The notes under the pieces: model-generated | What the model was told of the DNA's origin: nothing | The model's input: the letters and a program-made list of their open reading frames with translations, nothing else | Database searches by the model: none | Shown here: one piece after another, positions 4,305 to 60,567 of the stretch | Numbering within the stretch: position 1 is the stretch's first letter | How the letters are laid out: each line of letters opens with the position of its first letter | DNA from: a virus | Direction: 5' to 3' (one strand) | Virus record (IMG/VR): IMGVR_UViG_3300045988_056900 | DNA length: 64,000 bases | Translations under genes and position numbers: made by a program

Positions 4305-5546
4305 ATGAAATTAGGAGATAAAAATATTGTAGCTGCATATCTTGGCGATGTTAATGTATTTACTAACTATTATGGAGTTAGCTTTCCTATAGAACCGTAG
4401 AGTACATTATTGACTAGAACCGGGTATATGCCTTGGCATAAAGAACTTCCTATACATTCTAAGATGAAGTCTTGCACGATTACTTCTGATGGAACAGTTA
4501 AATATCTTAATGCTACAGATAGAACCAAGTATGAAGATGGTACTGATAGAGACATGACATTAAATACTATGGTAGAAATACCAGAGTTCTGGTATAAATG
4601 TATGAGAGATGATACTACTGTATATTTGAACTTATATCCAGCAGATCCTCATATTCCAGAAGCTGAACATGTGGAGAAGTTCTATATTTCTGCATATGAA
4701 GCATCTAATGTAGATAATGTGTTAAAATCTATTAACAATGGATCTATTACTCCAGTAGTAAACATTAATAGAACTACTATGCAATCTAGAGCTAGGGCTA
4801 ATAACTCCAGTACTACGAATTGGAACATGTATACTTACAGAGCTCATAGAATACTTACTGTGCTTTACTTAGTTGAATATGCATGTACCAACAGTTAGAA
4901 AGCTTTCAATGCCGAATTAACTGCAGAAGGATATCATCAAGGAGGCTTAGGAGATGGAGTTACTACAGGTAATATTAAAGTAAATGGAGTAGATACTTGG
5001 AGTTGTGTACCTTGCGGAAGTACAGACGAACATGGTAACTTTACTGGAATAACTCCCGTTACAGTTACTAGTACTGATGCAGAAGGTACTGCTACTCAAA
5101 AGACTTATAGTGTTCCTACTTATAGAGGTATTGAGAATCCATTTGGTCATGTATGGAAAAATTGTATAGACACACTTGTACATTTTAATGCGCAAACTAA
5201 TAAAAATGACGTTTATATAAATACCGACTTAAGTACATTTGGATCTACTGATATATCTGATTATGACTATCAATGTAGTACCACTATTACTGAAGGTTAT
5301 AAGAAGAAGTTAGTATACAATGCAGCATTTGATATATTGCCTCCAATAGATGAAGCATTTGGTGGTAGTACTACAACTTATTGGTGTGACTACAATTGGA
5401 CTAATAATAGTACAACTGATAGGCTAACATTAATAGGCGGTGATGCTGGTAATAGCGCGTATGCTGGGTTGCTCCTTGTTCTTTCTGGCGATGGGCTTGG
5501 CCATGCTAGTGCTACTATCGGTACTCGGTTAATCTATATACCGTAA
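4305..5546 (+). CDS. DGR target protein with a C-terminal C-type-lectin / FGE-like variable domain; two in-frame TAGs (4398, 4896)
   Basis: ATG 4305 and ORF fragments 4410.. and 5337.. share one frame. YRGIENPFGHVWKNCID and YWCDYNW are typical of FGE/CLec-fold DGR targets. The VR occupies the last ~35 codons before TAA 5544. Confidence 0.85.
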
Positions 5547-5548
5547 TT
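5436..5548 (+). repeat. DGR variable repeat (VR)
   Basis: 5436-5525 aligns without gaps to 5585-5674. The shared CCGTAATT end is at 5541-5548 and 5681-5688, with a 9-nt indel between the two copies. Confidence 0.9.
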
Positions 5549-5580
5549 TAATTAAAAATATAGATAGGTTGTTCCTCATC

Positions 5581-5688
5581 ATTAAGCAGTAATGCTAGTA
5601 ATAGCACGAATGCTAGGTTACTCAATGTTAATTCTAACAATGAGCTTAGCAATGCTAATGCTAATATCAGTACACTGAATCCGTAATT
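5581..5688 (+). repeat. DGR template repeat (TR), part of the DGR RNA
   Basis: Non-coding copy of the VR, rich in AAT/AAC/AGY codon-equivalents. It lies 35 nt after the target stop and 118 nt before the RT ATG. Confidence 0.9.
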
Positions 5689-5805
5689 AAACAAATAAAG
5701 AAATTAAGAGACTGTAGAGGGAGACCTTACCCCTTGGTAAAAGATAACATACTAATTAACTGTGTTAGTAACTTTTTTTCGTGAAAACTCGGTAATGGAT
5801 TACAG

Positions 5806-6831
5806 ATGAAAAGATATAATAATTTATTTGACAAAATAGTAACTTTAGACAATTTATATCTAGCGGATAAAAGAGCTAGAAGACAAAAACAACATAGACC
5901 TGAAATAATTAATTTTGATAAGAATAGAGAAAAATTACTTTTAGATCTATAGAAGAAATTAATAGATGGTGAATATAAGACTTCTGAATATTATATATTC
6001 AAGATATATGAACCTAAAGAAAGAGAAATATTCAAGCTTCCATACTATCCAGATAGAATAGTACATCATGCTATTATGAACATTATGGAACCTATTTGGG
6101 TATCATCTTTCATTAAAGGAACTTATAGTTGTATAAAAAATCGTGGTATACATAAAGCTCTGAAAGATGTTAAGTTCGCACTGAAAGATGAAGCCAATAC
6201 AAAATACTGTCTTAAGTTAGATGTCAGAAAATTTTATCCTTCAATAGATCATGATATATTAAAATAGTTAATAAGAAGAAAAGTAAAAGATAAGAAACTA
6301 TTAGTTATATTAGATGAAATAATAGATTCTGCATAGGGAGTACCTATTGGCAATTACTTATCACAATTCTTCGCTAATTTATATTTAACATATCTAGATC
6401 ACTGGATCAAAGAAGAAAAACATATAAAATACTATTTCAGATACGCAGATGATATTGTAATACTTCATAGTGATAAAGACTATTTAAGATAGTTGTTTAA
6501 GGATATGAAGTAGTACTTAGAAGAGAGGCTTAACATTAACTTTAAAGATAATTGGCAAATATTTAAAGTTGACGATAGAGGAATAGATTTCGTAGGGTAT
6601 AAGATATTTCATACTCACACTCTGTTAAGAAAGCATATTAAGAAGAACTTCTGTAAAAGAGTAAGTAAATTGAACAAGAAAGATAACTTAGACAAGAGTG
6701 CTTATCAATAGAAAATATGTAGTTATATAGGTTGGATTAAGTACTGTAATGGTCGTAATTTATTTAGTAAAATGACTAAATATAAAGAGCTATTGCGATA
6801 CATATCAAAAAGTAAGAAGAAGAAAACCTAA
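5806..6831 (+). CDS. DGR reverse transcriptase, read through six in-frame TAGs (5950, 6265, 6334, 6490, 6511, 6709)
   Basis: GVPIGNYLSQFFANLYL is the DGR-RT signature (IGxxxSQ) and FRYADDIVIL is the YxDD box. All fragments share one frame and the gene ends at TAA 6829. Confidence 0.9.
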
Positions 6832-41295: not shown

Positions 41296-41637
41296 CTACG
41301 TATGTACAACATAGAACGCTGTTTTAGGTTCATGTGTGTACAAATAATAGTTAAATAACTTTTCACGTAAAGGCCATGCCTCATTTGGAAAGCCTTTACA
41401 TTCAATCACAAAACCTTTACCAACAAAGTCTGGTAAATAGGTCATTGCTCTATATTTTTTGTTGTTAAAAGTAAAAGCTGGAAGTAGCTCATATCTATGC
41501 ATTTCATAATCTGCTAGAATATTTGCTTCTTTCAGCTTTTTATATGTATATGTTTCAAGTTTACTTCGAAATTTAATTCCGTCATATTCGTTAGGAGTTG
41601 CATTTCGAACTCTACCTTGTTTTTTCTATTTCTTCAT
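41296..41637 (-). CDS. DUF1064-like small endonuclease; the proposed start requires reading TAG at codon 4
   Basis: EYDGIKFRSKLE...YLPDF...IECKG is a DUF1064-type pattern. The conserved N-terminal part lies upstream of the track's Met (41502). The only in-frame ATG is at 41637, followed by AAG AAA TAG. Confidence 0.55.
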
Positions 41638-42589
41638 ATAACCATTTTTTTACTTTCTCAAATCCATTTGCTTTAATAGCGTCAGATATATCTTTTGCCT
41701 TAAATTTCTTATGGACTAACATACCTTCTAAACCTGTTTTAAGGCTTATTTTACGGAGATATTTTACTCCAGCTTCATCTCTATCAAATAGTATAATAAT
41801 ACGTTTAAATCGCTTCTTTAACTGTTCTAGAATCTTATTAGGTATAAATGTAGATTCAGATGAAGGTGAAATGGCTGGAATACCCATTTCATATAAACAC
41901 ATAACATCTTTCATACTTTTAGTAATAATTAAGATGTCACCTGTTTTTGGAAGCTGCTTAAATCCCTGAATATCTAATTCAGTAAGATTATTACGCCACT
42001 TTGTATATTTGTCTGCTAAAGGTTTATATATCTTAAAATGATTGTATACCTTATAAGCATACATAGGATTATCTTCTTTATAAATGCTTTTTACTATGCC
42101 ATTACATAGGTAGTACTTTATACTACTTACTCCAAATTTTCTTAGAGTTTCTACCGTAATATTAAACTGCTTCCAGTAATTGATGTCAGTTTCAGTAAAT
42201 TCCTGACGTACAACACCAATTACTGTTTCAGTTGACGGTATATATTGCTTAGAGCTAACGAGTTGCGTATCGTTAGTAATTTTAAGTCTTTCAACAATAT
42301 CTTTAAGTATATCCGAGTAATTAGTTATACCTGTATAAAGTTCTATAAACTTTATTACATTTCCACACTGACCTGTTCCATGATCTTTAAACAACAACTG
42401 TTTTGTTTTTCTACTATAAAAGCATCCAAACGAAGGAGTTTTGTCTTTTCTCAATGGAGAATTATAGATCATTCCTACTTTAAAATTACCTATATACGCT
42501 GCATATATATCATACTCACTTACTCTAGAAAGAATCCAATCTAGAGTGATATTAAATGTATCTTTTACTTTTGTTGTATCGTAAATCAT
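41612..42589 (-). CDS. dnaG: DnaG-like DNA primase (Toprim)
   Basis: DKTPSFGCF...GQCGNVIKF is a zinc-binding-like region. RIIILFDRDEAGVKY is a Toprim motif. The stop codon is TAG. Confidence 0.8.
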   Translation of the reverse strand: MIYDTTKVKDTFNITLDWILSRVSEYDIYAAYIGNFKVGMIYNSPLRKDKTPSFGCFYSRKTKQLLFKDHGTGQCGNVIKFIELYTGITNYSDILKDIVERLKITNDTQLVSSKQYIPSTETVIGVVRQEFTETDINYWKQFNITVETLRKFGVSSIKYYLCNGIVKSIYKEDNPMYAYKVYNHFKIYKPLADKYTKWRNNLTELDIQGFKQLPKTGDILIITKSMKDVMCLYEMGIPAISPSSESTFIPNKILEQLKKRFKRIIILFDRDEAGVKYLRKISLKTGLEGMLVHKKFKAKDISDAIKANGFEKVKKWLYEEIEKTR

Positions 42590-42608
42590 ATGATATATTA
42601 TTTATTGT

Positions 42609-42679
42609 CAAAGCAACGGGACTCGAACCACGTCGTATAAGCAATCAACCTTATACGTAACCCAATTTGTTATACTTCG
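42609..42679 (-). ncRNA. Non-canonical tRNA-like element (~71 nt)
   Basis: Acceptor CGAAGTA/TGCTTTG (two G:U pairs), D-like arm TAAC-AAATTGG-GTTA, 7-bp stem with an 8-nt loop (GTATAAG-GTTGATTG-CTTATAC), and T arm ACG(T)GG-TTCGAGT-CCCGT. It sits 19 nt upstream of the primase ATG. Confidence 0.4.
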
Positions 42680-42686
42680 GTATAAA

Positions 42687-42755: not shown

Positions 42756-43379
42756 TTAGAACGGCAGATCGTCTGCTGGAGAACTGTTCATAGTAGATAG
42801 ATCATCTACTTTAGTCTCTTTATCAGCAATGACAGGTTTTGTAAATCTGTCAATAGACAACTCTCTAATCAAACTCTTATTTTCTGGATTTGTTTCTTTG
42901 TCGTAGAACCCTTCTGGTAATACCATAGGTTCAATTACTGCAAATTTAACATAAGTAGGCAAAGTAGTATAACCATTATCATTATAAACTACTTTAACCT
43001 TCAATAAGACATCTTTATTAGCTGCATTTAGCATTGTTACTACCCATTCAGTAAATTCTTTATAAGAACTACCATTAAAGTTCAGTACTCCTTTAGGATA
43101 GAAACAATTCATAATTCGCATTATACGAGTAACTACATTAGTTACTTTAGCCTGATTCTGTTCAGCAGAATCTCCTTCTCTTTCATTTGGTTCCCACTCT
43201 GTATGTAGTAACTCTTTTCCGTCTTTTTCAAAACGAAACTCCATAAAGTTTTTTCCAGTAGGAGATGTTGCTGCTCTTACACCAGTAAACTTAACATTAT
43301 CATGAATACCTGCTTCAAGATATTTACTGTCATTACTTGTTATTGCTACTTTGCTTGCTAATTCTGTACTATAAACCAT
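42756..43379 (-). CDS. ssb: Single-stranded DNA-binding protein
   Basis: The C-terminal acidic tip ...SSPADDLPF matches the bacterial SSB DDD(I/L)PF tail. The gene lies between primase and recombinase genes. Confidence 0.75.
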   Translation of the reverse strand: MVYSTELASKVAITSNDSKYLEAGIHDNVKFTGVRAATSPTGKNFMEFRFEKDGKELLHTEWEPNEREGDSAEQNQAKVTNVVTRIMRIMNCFYPKGVLNFNGSSYKEFTEWVVTMLNAANKDVLLKVKVVYNDNGYTTLPTYVKFAVIEPMVLPEGFYDKETNPENKSLIRELSIDRFTKPVIADKETKVDDLSTMNSSPADDLPF

Positions 43380-44669: not shown

Positions 44670-45650
44670 TTAATTGTTATTACTAAACGAAATCTTCTTC
44701 GTAGGTTCTTCTTCCCTTATAGTCTCAATTAAATTATTGTATTTTAGATCGTTATCAAACTCAAGTATAGCGCACTCTCCAGCATCCCTATTCTTTAGGA
44801 TATGAAGATAGACTTTATTCTTAACTAGTAAACGATTCGGTCCATACTGTTGTATATTGAGTAGTTCCGGTCTATGAATACATATAACATAATCAGATGC
44901 ATGGAATATAGTATCCGCAGAAGAAATGTCACTACGCATTGGGTAATGCATAGATGGATTGTTAATCCTATCAGGAGCTTCAATGTTTCGATTCATCTGT
45001 GATAACTGAATTATAGTAGTATTAGGGTACTTTTTAACCTTAATAAACAGTTTCTGTAAATCGGAAATCACTTTCAGTGCAGATTCTTGACCTTCTACAA
45101 GTAAAGTATGATCAAGGATAATAATAAATTTCTTACCCTTTGCATAGTTCTCGTAAAAATAATCAATAGTAGAAGCTATTTCTCCAACCGTCCCAGGTGT
45201 ATCAACATAATATATCTGGTATGATTTTATTTGTTGAGACGCTGTCTCAACTTGCGCCAATGTGTCATCGTTTAATTCCTCGTTAGCGCTATATAGCTGT
45301 GCAGTAGTTTGCCTTAACTTACTACTTAATTTTCTACCTACCTGCCTTGAACTTAACATCTCAAATGAGAAGTTAAGGATAACTACATCCTGTTCAGGAT
45401 TTAGATCTATTAAATCATTTTCAAGTGTATTAACAAATGATGATTTACCACTACCAGATATACCTACTATAGTATATATCGTATTAGGTTCAATTCCACC
45501 CATACAGTGTTTATTGAACTTATTCCACCTTGTTCTTAAAGATTGAATCTCATGATTCTTTCTTTGTTTTATATATTCTACTGCTTCTTTAGCTGCAATA
45601 GATATATGGCGGAAGGTAAGCGTATTAGTAGAGTTCTGTTCCATAATCAT
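44670..45650 (-). CDS. dnaB: DnaB-like replicative helicase (RecA-fold domain)
   Basis: Walker A GISGSGKSSF, Walker B FIIILDHTLL, and LSQMNRN, which matches the DnaB SQLNR motif. Confidence 0.8.
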   Translation of the reverse strand: MIMEQNSTNTLTFRHISIAAKEAVEYIKQRKNHEIQSLRTRWNKFNKHCMGGIEPNTIYTIVGISGSGKSSFVNTLENDLIDLNPEQDVVILNFSFEMLSSRQVGRKLSSKLRQTTAQLYSANEELNDDTLAQVETASQQIKSYQIYYVDTPGTVGEIASTIDYFYENYAKGKKFIIILDHTLLVEGQESALKVISDLQKLFIKVKKYPNTTIIQLSQMNRNIEAPDRINNPSMHYPMRSDISSADTIFHASDYVICIHRPELLNIQQYGPNRLLVKNKVYLHILKNRDAGECAILEFDNDLKYNNLIETIREEEPTKKISFSNNN

Positions 45651-46246: not shown

Positions 46247-48226
46247 TTAATCCCATAGGCTCATTTGTAACGGTTTTAATTCACGGATTATCTTATAGGC
46301 TTCCATAATGTAATACCTATAATTAATCTTTCTCTCTTCAATTGGTTTATCGTCTAAGTAATTTAATAAAGTAACACCAGATGCAGTAAGCATATTCTGA
46401 TACTGTTTTTCTTTTGCAACAAATATCTTTTTACCTACATATGGTTCATCATATTCTATAATTTCACCTTCTTTGTGTCCTGTTGGTTTCCATTTCCATA
46501 AATAGGCACCATTAGTACTTGCATAGAAACGATTAGTCCTTTGTTGTTCTTTATTATTATACTCAACATGCCATTGTTTACCAGTCTTTTCAGCCATTAG
46601 AAAGTCTCTAATGTCTTGGCAACCTTTTATAGTTTCTTCTACTGGTACTCCGTTCTTAAAAAAGTTTATTACTGCTTTCGGTATGATCTTCGGAGTTAGA
46701 CCTTTCCCTAATTTCACAGTAGTAATAAACATACCCTTTTCTTTTACTTTATCATCTTCAGTAATAGCAAAGTAGTCATTTATAGCATATTGATACATAG
46801 CCTTAAAACGTTCTTCTTCTAAAGTAAGTTTAGTAAGTTGTTCCCATTCTCTGCATACTTTGTTTACACTATCATATACAGATTTTTTAAGTAATACAAA
46901 CAGACCATCTGTATTAGCTTGGACGATTCGACATCCTAATTGGGTTAGTTTTTCAGCTAGCATTAGTAATAGTAACTGCCCATTTATACGTATTTGCATT
47001 ACTGCAAATGGACTATAACAGAAATTATGTGGATTCTGTAAGTTACCTGATAATCCATTGAGAGCAAGCTTTAAGGTTTCGTTTTTAACCTTATTGCCAT
47101 TGTGTTTAGCTTCGATGCGCTCATCTTTAATTTGTCTATATACTTCTAGAAATTCAGGTCCTAAATGTTTAGGATAGAACCCATATTCTATTAGCATACT
47201 TGGATATAGTGATGCAACATCTATATCAATGAGCATTTCATCTTCTTTTGGTATAACTATTTCAGGATCATTCACTGAATGAATTCCTCCAACTCCTACA
47301 GAATATCTTAATCCTTCAAATATGAATTTATTTTCATATCCTTTTCTTCCTGGAGATACTATTTGACTTTTCATATCATCTAGTACTTTTTGAAGTATAG
47401 GACTATCATACTTAATAAATGGTAGGATTACCTTATTTAAAGGTATTACATCCATTGGAGATCTTAAATCTTTAATATCATACCAGGTTTGACCTGTCTT
47501 TTCAAGATATTTCTGAGTTAAAATCTTCATTCCAATGTTTACTCCGTCTTTACTAAGTACTCTTACTCCGTATTCATCTTCAATAGCTAACCTTAAATCT
47601 ACATCTTTTTTACATCTATTGAGTAACTCTTCAGTAGAATTAACATCATTAATATTATACTCAATCATTGAATCTATTTGATTTTCAGGTAAATCTGCCT
47701 GCCAATCTGCAACAAATTCCTGTACATTTCTGTACTGCATTGTTACTTGAATTTCTTTCAAACCTACTCTTAACTTATTGCTATAAAGCATAGTAAGAAT
47801 ATCAAACGAATCAAAACAAATCATATACTTCCACTTACTCCAAGCTCTAATATCGTCTTCACTTGAAGTAGTAATTACTTTACTTAAATTAAATATAGAT
47901 CTACATATATCTCTATATCCTTTGTATTTCATTACAACATAATAATCTATTATATAATTTATAATAGGATTATCATAATGAAGATTATTATAACCACAAA
48001 ATAATTTATTAGTATTTAACTGAATTTTTGTAGTATATAAGTCTCCGAAAGTATAGTCTGTATTAACTGTATGAAAGAAATTGACTAATTCATCTAATTG
48101 ATTTCTTCTGCAAGATATTTCAAATTTATGCAATTCACCTGTTTCTGTATTTTTTACAGTACAATGGAAAACATTGGGGAATACCTCAATATCATATACA
48201 TAAACAATCTTATCTCGTATAATCAT
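46247..48226 (-). CDS. Family B DNA polymerase
   Basis: Exo I VYDIEVF, Exo II YNNLHYDNPII, Exo III YNINDVNSTEEL, motif A DVASLYPSML, motif B KLALNGLSG, motif C ANTDGLFV. Confidence 0.9.
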   Translation of the reverse strand: MIIRDKIVYVYDIEVFPNVFHCTVKNTETGELHKFEISCRRNQLDELVNFFHTVNTDYTFGDLYTTKIQLNTNKLFCGYNNLHYDNPIINYIIDYYVVMKYKGYRDICRSIFNLSKVITTSSEDDIRAWSKWKYMICFDSFDILTMLYSNKLRVGLKEIQVTMQYRNVQEFVADWQADLPENQIDSMIEYNINDVNSTEELLNRCKKDVDLRLAIEDEYGVRVLSKDGVNIGMKILTQKYLEKTGQTWYDIKDLRSPMDVIPLNKVILPFIKYDSPILQKVLDDMKSQIVSPGRKGYENKFIFEGLRYSVGVGGIHSVNDPEIVIPKEDEMLIDIDVASLYPSMLIEYGFYPKHLGPEFLEVYRQIKDERIEAKHNGNKVKNETLKLALNGLSGNLQNPHNFCYSPFAVMQIRINGQLLLLMLAEKLTQLGCRIVQANTDGLFVLLKKSVYDSVNKVCREWEQLTKLTLEEERFKAMYQYAINDYFAITEDDKVKEKGMFITTVKLGKGLTPKIIPKAVINFFKNGVPVEETIKGCQDIRDFLMAEKTGKQWHVEYNNKEQQRTNRFYASTNGAYLWKWKPTGHKEGEIIEYDEPYVGKKIFVAKEKQYQNMLTASGVTLLNYLDDKPIEERKINYRYYIMEAYKIIRELKPLQMSLWD

Positions 48227-48356: not shown

Positions 48357-48806
48357 TTAGGCGGCTAGCGAAGCCTTTGTTGTACTTGTTTTTCGTACAT
48401 ACGTTTTCTTAAACGCTACAAGGGAAGCTTTGTACTTAGCCTTGTCTTCTTTGCTTTGTTTAATAGATTTTGCTTTAGATTGTTTCATATGAATAATCAT
48501 ATGATCAAACTTAACTTGAGCATCGAGCTGTTTTCTGTCGTATTTATTAAACCTAGGATAATTGATAGATTGAAATACGAAAGTACTTTTTCTCTTTTCA
48601 ACAAGAGCTTTTGCTCTTTCTCGTTTAACTTTTCTACGAGCTTTAAGTTCTTCACTATAGAAGTTTTTTGGTTTAACCTCTTCTTCAGAAGTAATTTGTT
48701 TTACTCGAAATACTCTTCTTTCTGCTTTTCGAGCATTTCTTGCTGCAACTCTCTCTTCACTACGTGCTATTTTATATTCTTCTTTTCTGTTTTTATCTAT
48801 TTTCAT
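48357..48806 (-). CDS. Lys/Arg-rich hypothetical protein ending in -SLAA
   Basis: Intact 149-aa ORF with a TAA stop. Confidence 0.8.
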   Translation of the reverse strand: MKIDKNRKEEYKIARSEERVAARNARKAERRVFRVKQITSEEEVKPKNFYSEELKARRKVKRERAKALVEKRKSTFVFQSINYPRFNKYDRKQLDAQVKFDHMIIHMKQSKAKSIKQSKEDKAKYKASLVAFKKTYVRKTSTTKASLAA

Positions 48807-56602: not shown

Positions 56603-57178
56603 TTAATCTGTTAATAATTCTTTTAGTTTCTCTCTTGCCTTATTAAGGCGTGATTTAACTTGAGACTCTGTGAGTCCAAGATGCTCTGAAATCTGTTTGT
56701 AAGACAGATTTTGTATAGAGCGTAGTTCAATTATATTCCTATACTTCCAACGAAGTCGCGACAAGGCATTATCTAGAGCATCACTTTTCTCTGAGAAGAT
56801 ATAATCTTCTTCAGGTGAATAACTGGCCTGGCTACTCAACTGCAGAGAGTTGGCATCGTCGTCAATCCAATAGTTCGCTTTTTCCTTTTTAGTATGTCGA
56901 ATATAATCAATACTAGTATTTATTGCAATAGTTTTTAACCACATCTCAAATGAGATATTGTTTATATAACTATCTAGCTTACTAAAAGCTTTAGTAAAAG
57001 TAACTGATAATAAATCATCAGCTACATCTTTATTATTTACAATATAATAAATTGTATTATAAATAATCTTACTAAAACGATTATAAAGCCTTGTGAAGGC
57101 AGATTGTTTACCTTCTTTTGCCTGTTTGATCAGTTCGAAAATCTGTTGCTTTTCTAAATCTGTCATAATTACGGGCAT
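56603..57178 (-). CDS. ECF-type sigma-70 family RNA polymerase sigma factor
   Basis: Region-2-like DVADDLLSVTFTKAFSKLDSY...WLKTIAINTSIDYIR and region-4 HTH LSYKQISEHLGLTESQVKSRLNKAREKL. Confidence 0.8.
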   Translation of the reverse strand: MPVIMTDLEKQQIFELIKQAKEGKQSAFTRLYNRFSKIIYNTIYYIVNNKDVADDLLSVTFTKAFSKLDSYINNISFEMWLKTIAINTSIDYIRHTKKEKANYWIDDDANSLQLSSQASYSPEEDYIFSEKSDALDNALSRLRWKYRNIIELRSIQNLSYKQISEHLGLTESQVKSRLNKAREKLKELLTD

Positions 57179-58136: not shown

Positions 58137-58321
58137 GGTTTATTGATTTCTTTTTTAAAGTTATCTACTATACCAGATACTTGATCCATAGTTAGTTGTG
58201 GATATTTATCCATTACTTTACCTATTGCTTCAATATCTGATTTGCTTTCGTTCAACATTTTCTTGAACTCTCTCTCTTCTTGTCTGGAGTCAAACCAAAC
58301 CCACCAAGGTACTACGCGCAT
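58133..58321 (-). CDS. Small hypothetical protein
   Basis: 62-aa ORF with a 4-nt overlap to its downstream neighbour and a 10-nt overlap to its upstream neighbour. Confidence 0.6.
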   Translation of the reverse strand: MRVVPWWVWFDSRQEEREFKKMLNESKSDIEAIGKVMDKYPQLTMDQVSGIVDNFKKEINKP

Positions 58322-58590
58322 TGATATTCGTATTCTTTAATTTTGTTATTCAATAGCTCCCATTTTTCCTTGTCGATATCAGTTGCTTCTACTAAGTAGA
58401 TGATATCACAAGATGCTCTAAATACACCACGAATGTAGTTCATTCCCTCTTTATAATGATATTTGTTCTTATAAATTCTGGGAACATTTGCATGTAGACG
58501 AGTTATTAACTCTGTCTTCATTTTCAGTTCTGTTGCAGCTTTCTCCCATGATTCTGGTAAGTTCTGCCTAATAAAGTTCATTAATCCCAT
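58312..58590 (-). CDS. Small hypothetical protein
   Basis: Intact 92-aa ORF. Confidence 0.7.
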   Translation of the reverse strand: MGLMNFIRQNLPESWEKAATELKMKTELITRLHANVPRIYKNKYHYKEGMNYIRGVFRASCDIIYLVEATDIDKEKWELLNNKIKEYEYQCA

Positions 58591-58627
58591 TTCAAATTAA
58601 TTTATTGATTAAACTTAATTTAATTGT

Positions 58628-58686
58628 GGCATTAGAGGGAATCGAACCCTCTAACAGCTCTTACGTCTGATCTAGCCTGATATGCC
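58628..58686 (-). ncRNA. Divergent tRNA-like minihelix element (59 nt)
   Basis: GGCA...TGCC (4 bp) stacked on an 8-bp T-arm-like hairpin TTAGAGGG-TTCGATT-CCCTCTAA, giving a 12-bp minihelix equivalent, plus one internal arm with a 14-nt loop. Lies 37 nt upstream of ATG 58590. Confidence 0.4.
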
Positions 58687-59101
58687 TTACCACTTAGTTT
58701 TATATTTATTAAAATACTACGAGGCGACTGTCACTATTTCTAGCGCTAAAATCTATTTCACAACCCCATCATTAGTAACAGTTTCTCTTTAAATAAAGAG
58801 TTGTTAACCAGGATACTGTATGCTCCCCTGGGGATATCTCACGCTGCTAAGCGTGTATAATCCATTACATAACTTGTATTGCCAGTTATCTGCTTATTGA
58901 CCTATTCTACTTCACATTGTCGCAGTCAAATGCCTAGATGCCCCATTTAAAGTAGTACTCTTACAAAATTTAACTTATAGTTTGAGTACTACTCCCGATC
59001 TTCCTATCGCTGTTAATGAAAAAACTCTTAGAGAGAAATCGAAAATTAGCGTAAGATTTCTATACGGGCCTCTTATTATTCTTGCTTATTCCATTTTTTG
59101 T

Positions 59102-59157
59102 GGAGCATGAGGGAGTCGAACCCTCGTCCTAACGACTGATTCATAGACCTAACAGTC
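59102..59157 (-). ncRNA. tRNA 3'-half-like element
   Basis: GACTG-(14-nt loop TTAGGTCTATGAAT)-CAGTC-GTTAGGAC-GAGGG-TTCGACT-CCCTC-ATGCTCC. No adjacent 5' acceptor strand or D arm. Confidence 0.4.
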
Positions 59158-59788
59158 AATGAGTTTATAAGATTAATTGAAGTATAACTCGCGTACAGAA
59201 TTAAGCCATTCTTCCTGCTTTATTATTTAACACAGTTCACAGCACTCTCTACAGGTGAGCCTTCGTTATGTTATACAATATCCCTGCTATTTTTACAATT
59301 AATCTTATATTGTGACTAGGTAGGCGACCAAACCTACCTAGCCTATGGTCTTTTACGATATTTAAAGTATTCTCATACTATTAATGCCTTGATAACCTGT
59401 CTTGGAAGTATAGAATACTTTTCAGCTTCTATACGGCATGATGTCTAGCATCGCACTATTCCAAAAATGCCGACTTGATATCATAAGAATGCTATTGCAT
59501 AATATACTCAAAGAGTATAGAATCTGTATTTATATATTGCGCAATTTATATATACATCCTCATGATCTTAGGCACATGATCAGTGGCACGTTGTCATAAT
59601 GTCCTACTCTGGCATCGGTTGTATTACTACACCTTACACTTGTTGTATGCATGTCAATTCATGCATGAGCTGCATCTTCTGGTACTTAGCACATAAAATG
59701 TCATCACCACCTATTAGCTACTTTCTCTAGTTAGGTTATATAGTCAGTATTTCTACTGCTAAAACACTATACCTGGACTATGCGCGGA

Positions 59789-60253
59789 TTAAAGGGACAA
59801 CAGTTGTCCATCCCATCTCCAATCATAACGGGCTTTCGGGTACTGGTTAAGCAATTTGTTTTGCTGTTCCTGATACCATTTGTCAACTTCACGAAGAAGA
59901 TTGTTAGCCTCTTTGTAGAGCTCTTTACAATCCTTCAGGTAGTCTTCAATAGTGATGCCGCCGTTACGCAGTTTATCATCTTTTTCAGAGAACTTCTTCA
60001 AGTAATTGAGTTTGACCTCTTTTTCCTTGTCGGTCTTTTTCATACTCAAATAAGTTGCAAGACGAGTATACTCACTCTTCAAAGTTACGTCAATATGACG
60101 TTCCGTGAGCTCCTCTTTACGCTGTTTTGCAATCTTTTCAGCAGCAGCTTTTGCAACATCTTCTGTTACAGTTGAGCCATTGTTGATTACTTCTTCAATG
60201 TTCTCTGCTGATACTTTTGTAATATCAGCTACTTTTGCTTCTTCTTTTGTCAT
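59789..60253 (-). CDS. Hypothetical charged/coiled protein (more GC-rich)
   Basis: Intact 154-aa ORF with a shadow ORF opposite. Confidence 0.8.
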   Translation of the reverse strand: MTKEEAKVADITKVSAENIEEVINNGSTVTEDVAKAAAEKIAKQRKEELTERHIDVTLKSEYTRLATYLSMKKTDKEKEVKLNYLKKFSEKDDKLRNGGITIEDYLKDCKELYKEANNLLREVDKWYQEQQNKLLNQYPKARYDWRWDGQLLSL

Positions 60254-60300
60254 TTTTTGATAATGTTTAAAGATTGATACTATTGTTAATTAATCTCGAG

Positions 60301-60567
60301 TTATTTACTCTTCTTTTTTGCAAGATATTCTTTACGAAGACGTCTCTTGCGTTGGTTACATGATTCACGTTTACCTGCTTTGACAAGTTTACGATTCTCA
60401 TATGCCTGTTCTCTTTTCCAGCTATTTTCACGAATGAGCTGTAAATAGATAATCTCACGAGCTATATTAGCTTCTGCTTTAGCTTTATGAGCATTGATGC
60501 GTCCTTGAATTATCTCTTTTGACACACCTCTTTTTCTCATTTCTGAGATAATTCTTCTTTGTCCCAT
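60301..60567 (-). CDS. Small highly basic protein
   Basis: 88-aa ORF rich in K and R. Confidence 0.65.
   Translation of the reverse strand: MGQRRIISEMRKRGVSKEIIQGRINAHKAKAEANIAREIIYLQLIRENSWKREQAYENRKLVKAGKRESCNQRKRRLRKEYLAKKKSK

Follow-up and report, generated by a model that had tools for sequence, protein, structure and literature searches.

The subject of this study is a block of 1.2 kb (58591-59788) in a stretch of 64,000 nucleotides (nt) from the viral record IMGVR_UViG_3300045988_056900 (the window). The block is very probably a cluster of non-coding RNA genes that is centred on a circularly permuted, two-piece ssrA gene for transfer-messenger RNA (tmRNA), with a RAGATH-20 RNA in front of it and a tRNA-shaped minihelix behind it. 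Judged from the sequence and its covariation, the core is a permuted ssrA gene. In an initial annotation the block had been described as devoid of minus-strand open reading frames (ORFs) of 60 amino acids (aa) or more, with two tRNA-like fragments and several hairpins. It was verified that the longest minus-strand ORFs have 27-41 aa and the longest plus-strand ORF 53 aa, and that none reaches 60 aa on either strand. Both tRNA-like pieces were found to be real. Against an expectation of 0.09, six copies of the T-arm motif GGTTCRANTCC were counted in the window, and two of them are in the block on the minus strand (58638-58648 and 59112-59122), in elements extending from 58686 to 58627 and from 59160 to 59101, respectively. 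Plus-strand T-arm motifs at 45487 and 49298 were considered as further tRNA-like candidates; their stems were unpaired, and they were treated as chance occurrences. The checks proposed at that time, i.e., the permuted mode of ARAGORN, Rfam and a comparison with related phages, resolved the block.

Matches of the block and its flanks assigned the window to a Buchavirus genome from the human gut (Crassvirales, Suoliviridae, Loutivirinae), i.e., to the crAss-like phages, which are among the most abundant viruses of this habitat. The genome cr60_1 is 94.6% identical to the block and its flanks, and cr113_1, cr52_1 and others match more weakly. Around the block, every gene and RNA feature is on the minus strand. 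The relatives comprised 23 IMG/VR loci found via the neighbouring 154-aa protein, 7 RefSeq loci, and 120 further loci found via the conserved 16-mer TAGAATAGGTCAATAA; single loci are denoted by L numbers. Eight full-length loci matched the 16-mer without tag context, probably by chance, and two others were cut by the locus end.

Two Gene Pieces in Permuted Order

ARAGORN called a permuted tmRNA (tmRNA*) at 58748-59194 with the tag GNTSYVMDYTRLAA. The Rfam model tmRNA_permuted (RF04321) aligned to 59160-58839 with 40.3 bits and an E value of 3.6e-6 (gathering score 47). At the homologous place RefSeq already contains the feature 'transfer-messenger RNA, SsrA' in cr60_1, cr52_1, cr114_1, cr115_1, cr125_1 and cr10_1, and in cr60_1 a RefSeq 'tRNA-Leu' overlaps the end of the SsrA feature.

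The upstream piece, the acceptor piece (59101-59160, minus strand), was delimited by ARAGORN, the Rfam alignment, the edge of conservation and covariation. In the direction of the minus strand it consists of the 3′ strands of three P2 helices, GAC, the T arm GAGGG-UUCGACU-CCCUC (59125-59109), the 3′ acceptor strand AUGCUCC (59108-59102) and the discriminator A (59101). CCA is not encoded thereafter, and ACAA is found in its place. The following intervening segment of 156 nt (58945-59100, minus strand) is hypervariable and is predicted to be removed from the precursor. The coding piece (58687-58944, minus strand) was delimited by ARAGORN, the Rfam alignment, the relatives and covariation. It begins with the 5′ acceptor strand GGGGCAU (58944-58938), followed by the D-loop analogue GGCAUUUGAC, the 5′ strands of the three P2 helices, 12 nt, the tag ORF, helix 5, and a long 3′ domain (58834-58687), which includes two stems with compensatory changes. 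The gene order is permuted: the 3′ acceptor strand and the T arm are located upstream of the 5′ acceptor strand and the tag ORF, all on one strand.

The two pieces join via the acceptor stem and the three P2 helices to a tRNA-Ala-like domain. The acceptor stem GGGGCAU/AUGCUCC is followed by A73, and its third pair is G3:U70, the identity pair of alanine. Helix 5 is the hairpin CACGCU-UAGC-AGCGUG (58855-58840), which carries the UGA of the tag at its 3′ end; it had been correctly located before as CACGCT-GCTA-AGCGTG at exactly 58840-58855. As expected for a tmRNA, a T arm and a D-loop analogue (GGNUUYGAC) are joined by P2, and all helices were 94-100% paired with compensatory changes.

Covariation in Related Phages

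A permuted tmRNA was called by ARAGORN in 21 of the first 30 related loci, which included three subfamilies of the Suoliviridae. For the covariation analysis 19 sequences were aligned with the two pieces joined, and controls were generated by sliding the partners by 1-3 columns. In the 33 proposed pairs 94.1% of the cells were paired, in contrast to 36-52% in the slid controls, and every helix was supported. Nineteen pairs had changed on both sides, and the observed values were reached by none of 500 shuffles. The third acceptor pair was G:U in 17 of the 19 aligned relatives, and the remaining two rows look misaligned. Six acceptor strand pairs covary, with joint switches among forms such as GGGGCAU/AUGCUCC, GGGGCUA/UAGCUCC, GGGGUAU/AUACUCC, GGGGAUG/CAUCUCC and GGGGGUG/CACCUCC, and throughout these switches the frame GGGG...CUCCA with its G:U pair is kept. 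In all relatives conservation sets in exactly at 59160, extends to the discriminator and returns close to the 5′ acceptor strand. A coding piece without 7 nt of the P2 5′ strand was observed in L013 (about 4885-4964), which received no ARAGORN call and may be a pseudogene or an assembly error.

The Tag Reading Frame

The tag ORF (58883-58839, GGC...UGA) starts with the resume codon GGC (Gly) at 58883, contains 14 codons encoding GNTSYVMDYTRLAA, and ends with UGA at 58841-58839. It is a short frame with a hydrophobic C-terminus of the xAA type and a stop codon in or at helix 5. The tags predicted by ARAGORN for the relatives were GNTSYV[MT]DYTRL[AV]A, GNFYVTDYTRIAA, GNTSYIMNYSRIAA and GNNFVTDYTQLAVA, which share the pattern GN..Y..DYT.L/I.A. 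All 33 distinct 14-codon versions among the relatives were open. The variable sites were distributed over codon positions 1, 2 and 3 as 6, 5 and 10, and synonymous codons were used for D, Y, T, R, L, I, A and V. The excess of third positions and the synonymous codons are the pattern expected of a translated tag. An alternative frame, GCA AUA CAA GUU AUG UAA (AIQVM*), was rejected: its length and content shift in L027, L028 and L030, while the ARAGORN frame keeps ..DYT.L/I.A.

A Mosaic Locus

Leaving aside a single automated, uninspected call of 0 nt, the length of the intervening segment varies between 15 and 1098 nt among the relatives, and its sequence is not conserved. It is 601 nt long in L003, L007 and L021, which carry an endonuclease ORF on the opposite strand and have the unusual T loop UAUCGUAU. 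In L020 and L026 a segment of only 16 nt was observed together with the T loop GGCAGUG. The segment of cr114_1 (L027) contains a full tRNA-His(GTG) gene (2677-2749, 63 bits). A tRNA gene inside an intervening segment was called a unique case in a 2025 tmRNA survey (PMC11915505).

In L025 a group I intron of 759 nt (5144-5902, Rfam 73 bits) follows position 7 of the T loop and carries an antisense ORF for an HNH endonuclease. Group I introns in the tmRNA T loop were reportedly described by Williams in 2002; L025 is alike in the insertion site and differs by its permuted gene, and the window itself is intron-free. In the 2025 survey 'intron' and 'permuted' are treated as separate forms of tmRNA genes (PMC11915505).

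Two further parts of the locus were found to be variable. Two versions of the region after the tag exist, a short one with about 35-40 nt (AACGGCUAAGCUAAUGUCGUAAAAAGCUGG) and a long one with about 150 nt, which is that of the window. Directly upstream of the acceptor piece an optional insert of 148 nt (59161-59308, minus strand) has a terminal inverted repeat of 13 base pairs (bp; 59296-59308/59167-59179) and folds as a single long closed stem (z -2.06). It is present in the window, L006, L007, L009, L010, L012, L013 and L022, and is missing from most other relatives. An identity as a miniature inverted-repeat transposable element was considered and rejected, as neither the window nor cr4_1 contains a second copy.

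A tRNA-Like Minihelix After the tmRNA

The coding piece is directly followed by a tRNA-like minihelix of 60 nt without an anticodon arm (58627-58686, minus strand), which was defined by pairing, compensatory changes and a census of this slot. It comprises the acceptor stem GGCAU (58686-58682)/AUGCC, an A-A mismatch, and a T stem of 6 bp with the loop UUCGAUU, so that 5 bp, the mismatch and 6 bp add up to 12 layers. Its central hairpin CAGGCUAGAUCAGACGUAAGAGCUG with a loop of about 14 nt is nearly invariant, and the discriminator A is followed by CAA. For 58686-58627 no ARAGORN call was obtained and no match to RF00005 at E values up to 10. With an acceptor stem, a T arm and one hairpin, and no cloverleaf, the element is tRNA-like and not a tRNA. 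In seven variants 99.1% of the cells were paired, in contrast to 37-57% in the slid controls, and double changes were observed in the acceptor stem (G1-C to A1-U, C3-G to U3-A) as well as in the T stem. Thirty-six nt of an A/U-rich leader (58591-58626, minus strand), which are identical or nearly so in all Buchavirus relatives, separate the minihelix from the ATG (58590) of a 92-aa gene. A coaxial acceptor/T helix of about 12 layers, as expected for a processing signal at an RNA boundary, is located between the coding piece and the next ORF.

A T arm with an acceptor element was found at this slot in all 133 complete related loci, and ARAGORN called a tRNA in only 9 of them. The occupants belong to at least five unrelated sequence types and range from minihelices consisting of acceptor and T arm (43-46 nt), via the window type of 59-60 nt, to full-size tRNA-like genes with odd anticodon loops. 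The slot of cr60_1 contains a tRNA-Leu(UAA), and that of cr10_1 (L030) a tRNA-His derivative that has lost 4 nt from the anticodon loop.

Similar modules are present in other spacers of the window. A tRNA-like module of 58 nt (48303-48246, minus strand) has an acceptor stem, a D arm and a T arm, and 4 nt replace the anticodon arm. It has 44.9 bits with the Rfam tRNA model and no ARAGORN call, and is located between the ORFs 48357..48806 and 46247..48226, 20 nt before the ATG. Another module (about 42604-42680, minus strand) contains the T-arm motif GGTTCGAGTCC at 42619-42629, preceded by a hairpin of 8 bp and followed by UGCUUUG-ACAA. Its place is the spacer between the ORFs 42756..43379 and 41612..42589, with about 15 nt left to the ATG, and it looks like a degenerate tRNA-like element. 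No terminator-like site was detected in 58200-60400. Because the slot is always filled, a terminator is missing and similar modules are found in short spacers elsewhere, we infer that the module may be kept for its shape, as a signal for RNase P and tRNA 3′ processing.

RAGATH-20 and the RNAs Upstream of the tmRNA

The first RNA of the cluster is RAGATH-20 (RF03048; 59564-59665, minus strand), which matched model positions 1-102 with 122 bits (gathering score 101.4). It is present in every relative scanned, and its helices P1 and P2 covary. P1 is the hairpin ATGCATG..CATGCAT, whose existence had been noted at slightly different coordinates (59647-59653/59660-59666 are correct). A near-invariant structured 3′ extension (59344-59563, minus strand) lies outside the Rfam model. 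It is almost identical among relatives whose neighbouring 154-aa protein is 64-76% identical, and the conservation of the RAGATH-20 block runs nearly unchanged to 59309 and is higher than that of the adjacent protein gene. RNAalifold predicted helices with compensatory changes for this block, and the fold z score for 59670-59305 was -3.07.

The conserved block ends with the hairpin GGCUAGGUAGG-UUUGGUCG-CCUACCUAGUC of 11 bp (59314-59343, minus strand), in which five pairs show compensatory double changes and the loop UUUGGUCG is conserved. No U-tract follows. The 9-bp stem CTAGGTAGG/CCTACCTAG that had been reported at about 59311-59336 is indeed part of it, but its arms are located at 59316-59324 and 59333-59341, and the stem reaches 11 bp. 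In most relatives the hairpin is 3 nt upstream of the acceptor piece, and in the window the 148-nt insert intervenes. Taken together, the comparative sequence data suggest that the conserved structured RNA has about 350 nt, of which the Rfam model appears to cover only the 5′-terminal 102 nt.

On the same strand, a hatchet ribozyme (62600-62474, 99.8 bits) and RAGATH-9 (60753-60597, 129.5 bits) were found, and hatchet, RAGATH-9, RAGATH-20, tmRNA and minihelix are all located within 4 kb. In the Uncouvirinae (L027-L029) RAGATH-9 is directly 5′ of the acceptor piece, at about 20 nt, where Buchavirus has the RAGATH-20 block. A search of the literature yielded nothing on the function of RAGATH-20. 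Ribozymes beside tRNAs in gut phages (theta ribozymes) have been proposed to process tRNA trailers (PMC10879173). Elsewhere in the window, an RT-17 match was observed at 5723-5812 on the plus strand, with a score of 40.8 bits just at the threshold. Pfam searches with the flanking proteins were uninformative apart from an extracytoplasmic function (ECF)-type sigma factor (Sigma70_r2 and r4) encoded at 56603-57178 on the minus strand, about 1.4 kb downstream of the tmRNA cluster; this arrangement is syntenic in the three subfamilies.

Discussion

Several observations weigh against the proposed RNA gene cluster or against parts of it. The RF04321 score of the window stays below the gathering score, apparently because of the 156-nt intervening segment; the score is exceeded in L020 (65.4 bits), L027 (50.9 bits) and L030 (49.6 bits), whose intervening segments have 16-159 nt. 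The 12 nt (AAGCAGAUAACU) between P2 and the resume codon leave no space for the pseudoknot PK1, which is normally important for tmRNA function. These 12 nt were compared with the loops of the acceptor piece and with the region after the tag, and no consistent or covarying partner was found. Downstream of the tag stems or a short pseudoknot-like element are present, so that the tmRNA does not have the usual four pseudoknots with PK2-PK4. Reduced sets of pseudoknots are known among other tmRNAs, and therefore the missing pseudoknots are taken as a sign of a reduced tmRNA form and not as an argument against its identity. SmpB was found neither in the window nor in crAss-like records among the matches listed (60 of the 68 phage SmpB records), so that its absence from crAss-like phages is incompletely established. 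The ends of the pieces, the removal of the segment, the addition of CCA, the charging and the tagging are all predictions. A promoter was not identified; the matches of sigma-70-type scans are uninformative for a phage of Bacteroidales. Lastly, the full-size tRNAs in the slot of other phages would fit a tRNA gene slot that decays.

That the minihelix is only a decaying tRNA gene, eroding without a function of its own, is nevertheless unlikely. Full-size tRNAs do occupy the slot in relatives, with tRNA-Ile-like and Asn/Lys-like genes in addition to the tRNA-Leu(UAA) of cr60_1, and the element of L030 resembles a tRNA-His whose anticodon loop is shortened by 4 nt. However, the minihelix of the window type is more than 90% identical between subfamilies (Buchavirus and Birpovirus L028), and its 12 sequence variants all keep the pairing, including double compensatory changes. 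Acceptor and T stems persist in every type while anticodon arms are lost, which argues for selection for shape. The minihelix might also stay attached as a CCA-receiving protective 3′ cap, or act as a decoy that titrates SmpB, the CCA-adding enzyme or an aminoacyl-tRNA synthetase, and both roles seem quite improbable. A specific ligand is suggested by the near-invariant central hairpin, and nothing in the acceptor piece pairs with the coding piece at its 3′ end, in contrast to the two-piece tmRNAs of Alphaproteobacteria. The RNA of mycobacteriophage DS6A, which consists of the tRNA-like domain only and for which a decoy role was proposed, is a precedent from a phage (PMC4131195). Yet the minihelix has neither a G3:U70 pair nor the D-loop analogue of tmRNAs, and the slot sequences of other phages are quite different. 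Continued attachment is made less likely by the expectation that any acceptor/T minihelix is a substrate of RNase P.

A further possibility is that the tmRNA-like sequence is a non-functional remnant, e.g., a fragment like the phage attachment site attP or a captured host gene. Fragments of tRNAs and tmRNAs are frequent at phage attachment sites (PMC9004378), and the lack of PK1 would be in line with a remnant. Against this, the tRNA-like domain is complete with two covarying halves, the tag frame is open in 33 variants with synonymous changes, the synteny extends across three subfamilies, and the gene of the hosts is in one piece, has 395-399 nt and encodes another tag; the remnant is thus very improbable. 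Hardly any credence can be given to two tRNA genes that are split by long insertions, with the 5′ strands GGCATTA about 700 nt upstream and GGAGCAT downstream. This had been considered in the initial annotation, besides permuted tRNA genes and a composite non-coding RNA, on the basis of exact 7-mer complements of the two 3′ acceptor strands. Both 7-mers exist, as TAATGCC at 59382-59388, one base away from the position given before, and as ATGCTCC at 58820-58826. The chance expectation for each is about 7% in 1.2 kb. Conservation in relatives had been named beforehand as the decisive test, and neither 7-mer is conserved or covaries. GGCATTA is a chance match without covariation with the minihelix: L015 has GGCATTT together with an identical minihelix, and in L007 GGCATTA is unchanged despite the 3′ strand UAAUACC of its minihelix. 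The adjacent hairpin AGTA-TGAGAA-TACT belongs to a 15-nt indel that is missing from most relatives. GGAGCAT is not an acceptor strand but lies in the loop of a variable hairpin in the long 3′ domain, and reads GGAGUAU in L015 and GGAGCAC in L019 and L020. Local partners with covariation account for both tRNA-like elements. The element at 59102-59157 is indeed part of a permuted gene, but of a tmRNA and not of a tRNA gene, and its partner is GGGGCAU, 156 nt downstream, which was missed by a search for exact complements because the real stem uses the G3:U70 wobble pair. No split or permutation is seen in the element at 58628-58686, a minihelix that is complete and supplies its own 5′ strand, GGCAU.

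The permuted tmRNA gene can be compared with several known systems. Two-piece tmRNAs occur in Alphaproteobacteria, some Betaproteobacteria, Cyanobacteria and mitochondria, and their precursors are cut by tRNA-processing enzymes (PMC11915505). The gene order, a tRNA-like domain formed by two RNAs, the P2 helices and a tag stop codon in helix 5 are common to the bacterial forms (RF04321, RF01849-51) and the phage gene. In contrast, the phage gene has a tag starting with Gly (GGC), no space for PK1, a hypervariable intervening segment and a tRNA-like module behind it. The two-piece tmRNA of bacteria was reportedly described by Keiler in 2000 and by Sharkady and Williams in 2004. The lineage-specific Rfam models scored below their cut-offs (alpha 45 versus 50, beta 28.5 versus 84).

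Phage tmRNAs are known in mycobacteriophages and in Bacillus phage G, and the combination of a lytic phage with ssrA and without smpB is found among them as well. An SmpB homologue was observed to be encoded by the Lak megaphages of Prevotella. Phage tmRNAs have been reported before (PMC4131195), and a tmRNA database of 2025 contains 79 phage sequences (PMC11915505). Two-piece forms called by ARAGORN make up 53 of 133 unique phage tmRNAs, and 50 of the 53 stem from marine or aquatic samples; the two-piece ssrA of the marine phage Melnitz clusters with alphaproteobacterial (SAR11) ssrA (PMC9004378). In contrast to the marine phage tmRNAs, that of the window belongs to a crAss-like phage of the human gut and resembles the tmRNA of Bacteroidales. 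A paper describing a crAss-like tmRNA was not found in the literature, although RefSeq annotates it.

The Bacteroidales hosts (Segatella copri, Bacteroides, Parabacteroides, Prevotella) have a one-piece gene of 395-399 nt with the tag GE[NT]NYALAA. PK1 could be read directly in their sequences, and PK2-PK4 are presumably present in view of the standard length. The resume codon GGC in the context UGGC is common to the host and the phage genes, the D-loop analogue UGGAUUUGAC of the hosts is found in L027 and L030, and the T arm and the 3′ end are nearly identical (29 of 30 positions between L030 and S. copri). In contrast to the standard order of the hosts, the phage gene is permuted, has about 210 nt in total in the short versions, encodes a tag of 13-14 residues, lacks PK1, and has no more than a few stems or pseudoknot-like elements downstream of the tag. 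With moderate confidence, this comparison of sequences suggests an independent permutation of a tmRNA of the Bacteroidota type. The confidence is moderate, as only short segments are shared and an adaptation to host factors could also explain them.

Non-decoding elements of tRNA shape that act as processing signals are known from mitochondrial tRNA punctuation, the t-elements of plant mitochondria and the mascRNA of MALAT1. The minihelix is alike in being located at the boundary of two functional RNAs, and its cleavage is a prediction. RAGATH-20 has a full-length match to its Rfam model, and here the conserved, structured region extends about 250-350 nt past the 102 nt of the model. The theta-ribozyme case involves a ribozyme and not a tRNA mimic, and the minihelix follows the coding piece of a tmRNA (PMC10879173).

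By analogy to established tmRNA biology, the following scheme can be proposed. A single leftward transcript probably covers the cluster, coming from the 154-aa gene and continuing into the 92-aa gene. RAGATH-20, its extension and the 11-bp hairpin would form one RNA in front of the tmRNA. Host RNase P would cut at G1 (58944), and host 3′ processing together with the CCA-adding enzyme would complete the acceptor piece after A59101. At the other end of the coding piece, RNase P might set the 3′ end by cutting at the 5′ end of the minihelix, and 3′ processing of the minihelix would free the downstream mRNA, whose ATG is 36 nt away. The mature RNA would be charged by the host alanyl-tRNA synthetase and would be brought to stalled ribosomes by host SmpB and EF-Tu; a dependence on host SmpB is suggested, given that the search of the window gave no SmpB and that no crAss-like record was among the matches listed. 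Nascent peptides would then gain a phage-specific degradation tag, unlike the tag GE[NT]NYALAA of the host.

The core of the cluster is of an already known kind and is annotated in sister genomes, while the lack of PK1 in a compact gene, the universal presence of a tRNA-like cap, the mobile inserts and the RAGATH-20 extension appear to be undescribed. It is a tentative idea that the Suoliviridae possess a two-piece tmRNA lineage of their own, in which a gene of the Bacteroidota type was independently permuted and cut down to about 210-320 nt without PK1. The maturation of this tmRNA, and also of neighbouring mRNAs, might proceed via anticodon-less modules cut by host RNase P/Z, alongside hatchet, RAGATH-9 and RAGATH-20 on one long transcript, and group I introns, homing endonucleases and tRNA genes might use the locus as a landing pad.

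For annotation, the results imply that 'ORF-free' blocks in these genomes are packed clusters of RNA genes, and that exact-complement 7-mers are poor guides to acceptor stems, since the real stem contains a G:U pair. The locus represents a natural minimal two-piece tmRNA without PK1, which may be a further case of independent permutation, and L025 indicates that a permuted gene can also hold a T-loop intron. The tmRNA itself is already present in RefSeq relatives, and its compact, apparently host-derived, tRNA-capped layout seems undescribed. A conserved phage tmRNA with its own tag, for which no phage SmpB was found, implies an intervention in ribosome rescue and protein quality control of the host. 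It is tempting to speculate that the phage may thereby free ribosomes during the degradation of host mRNA, counter a defence that cuts mRNAs or tRNAs, or redirect protein degradation.

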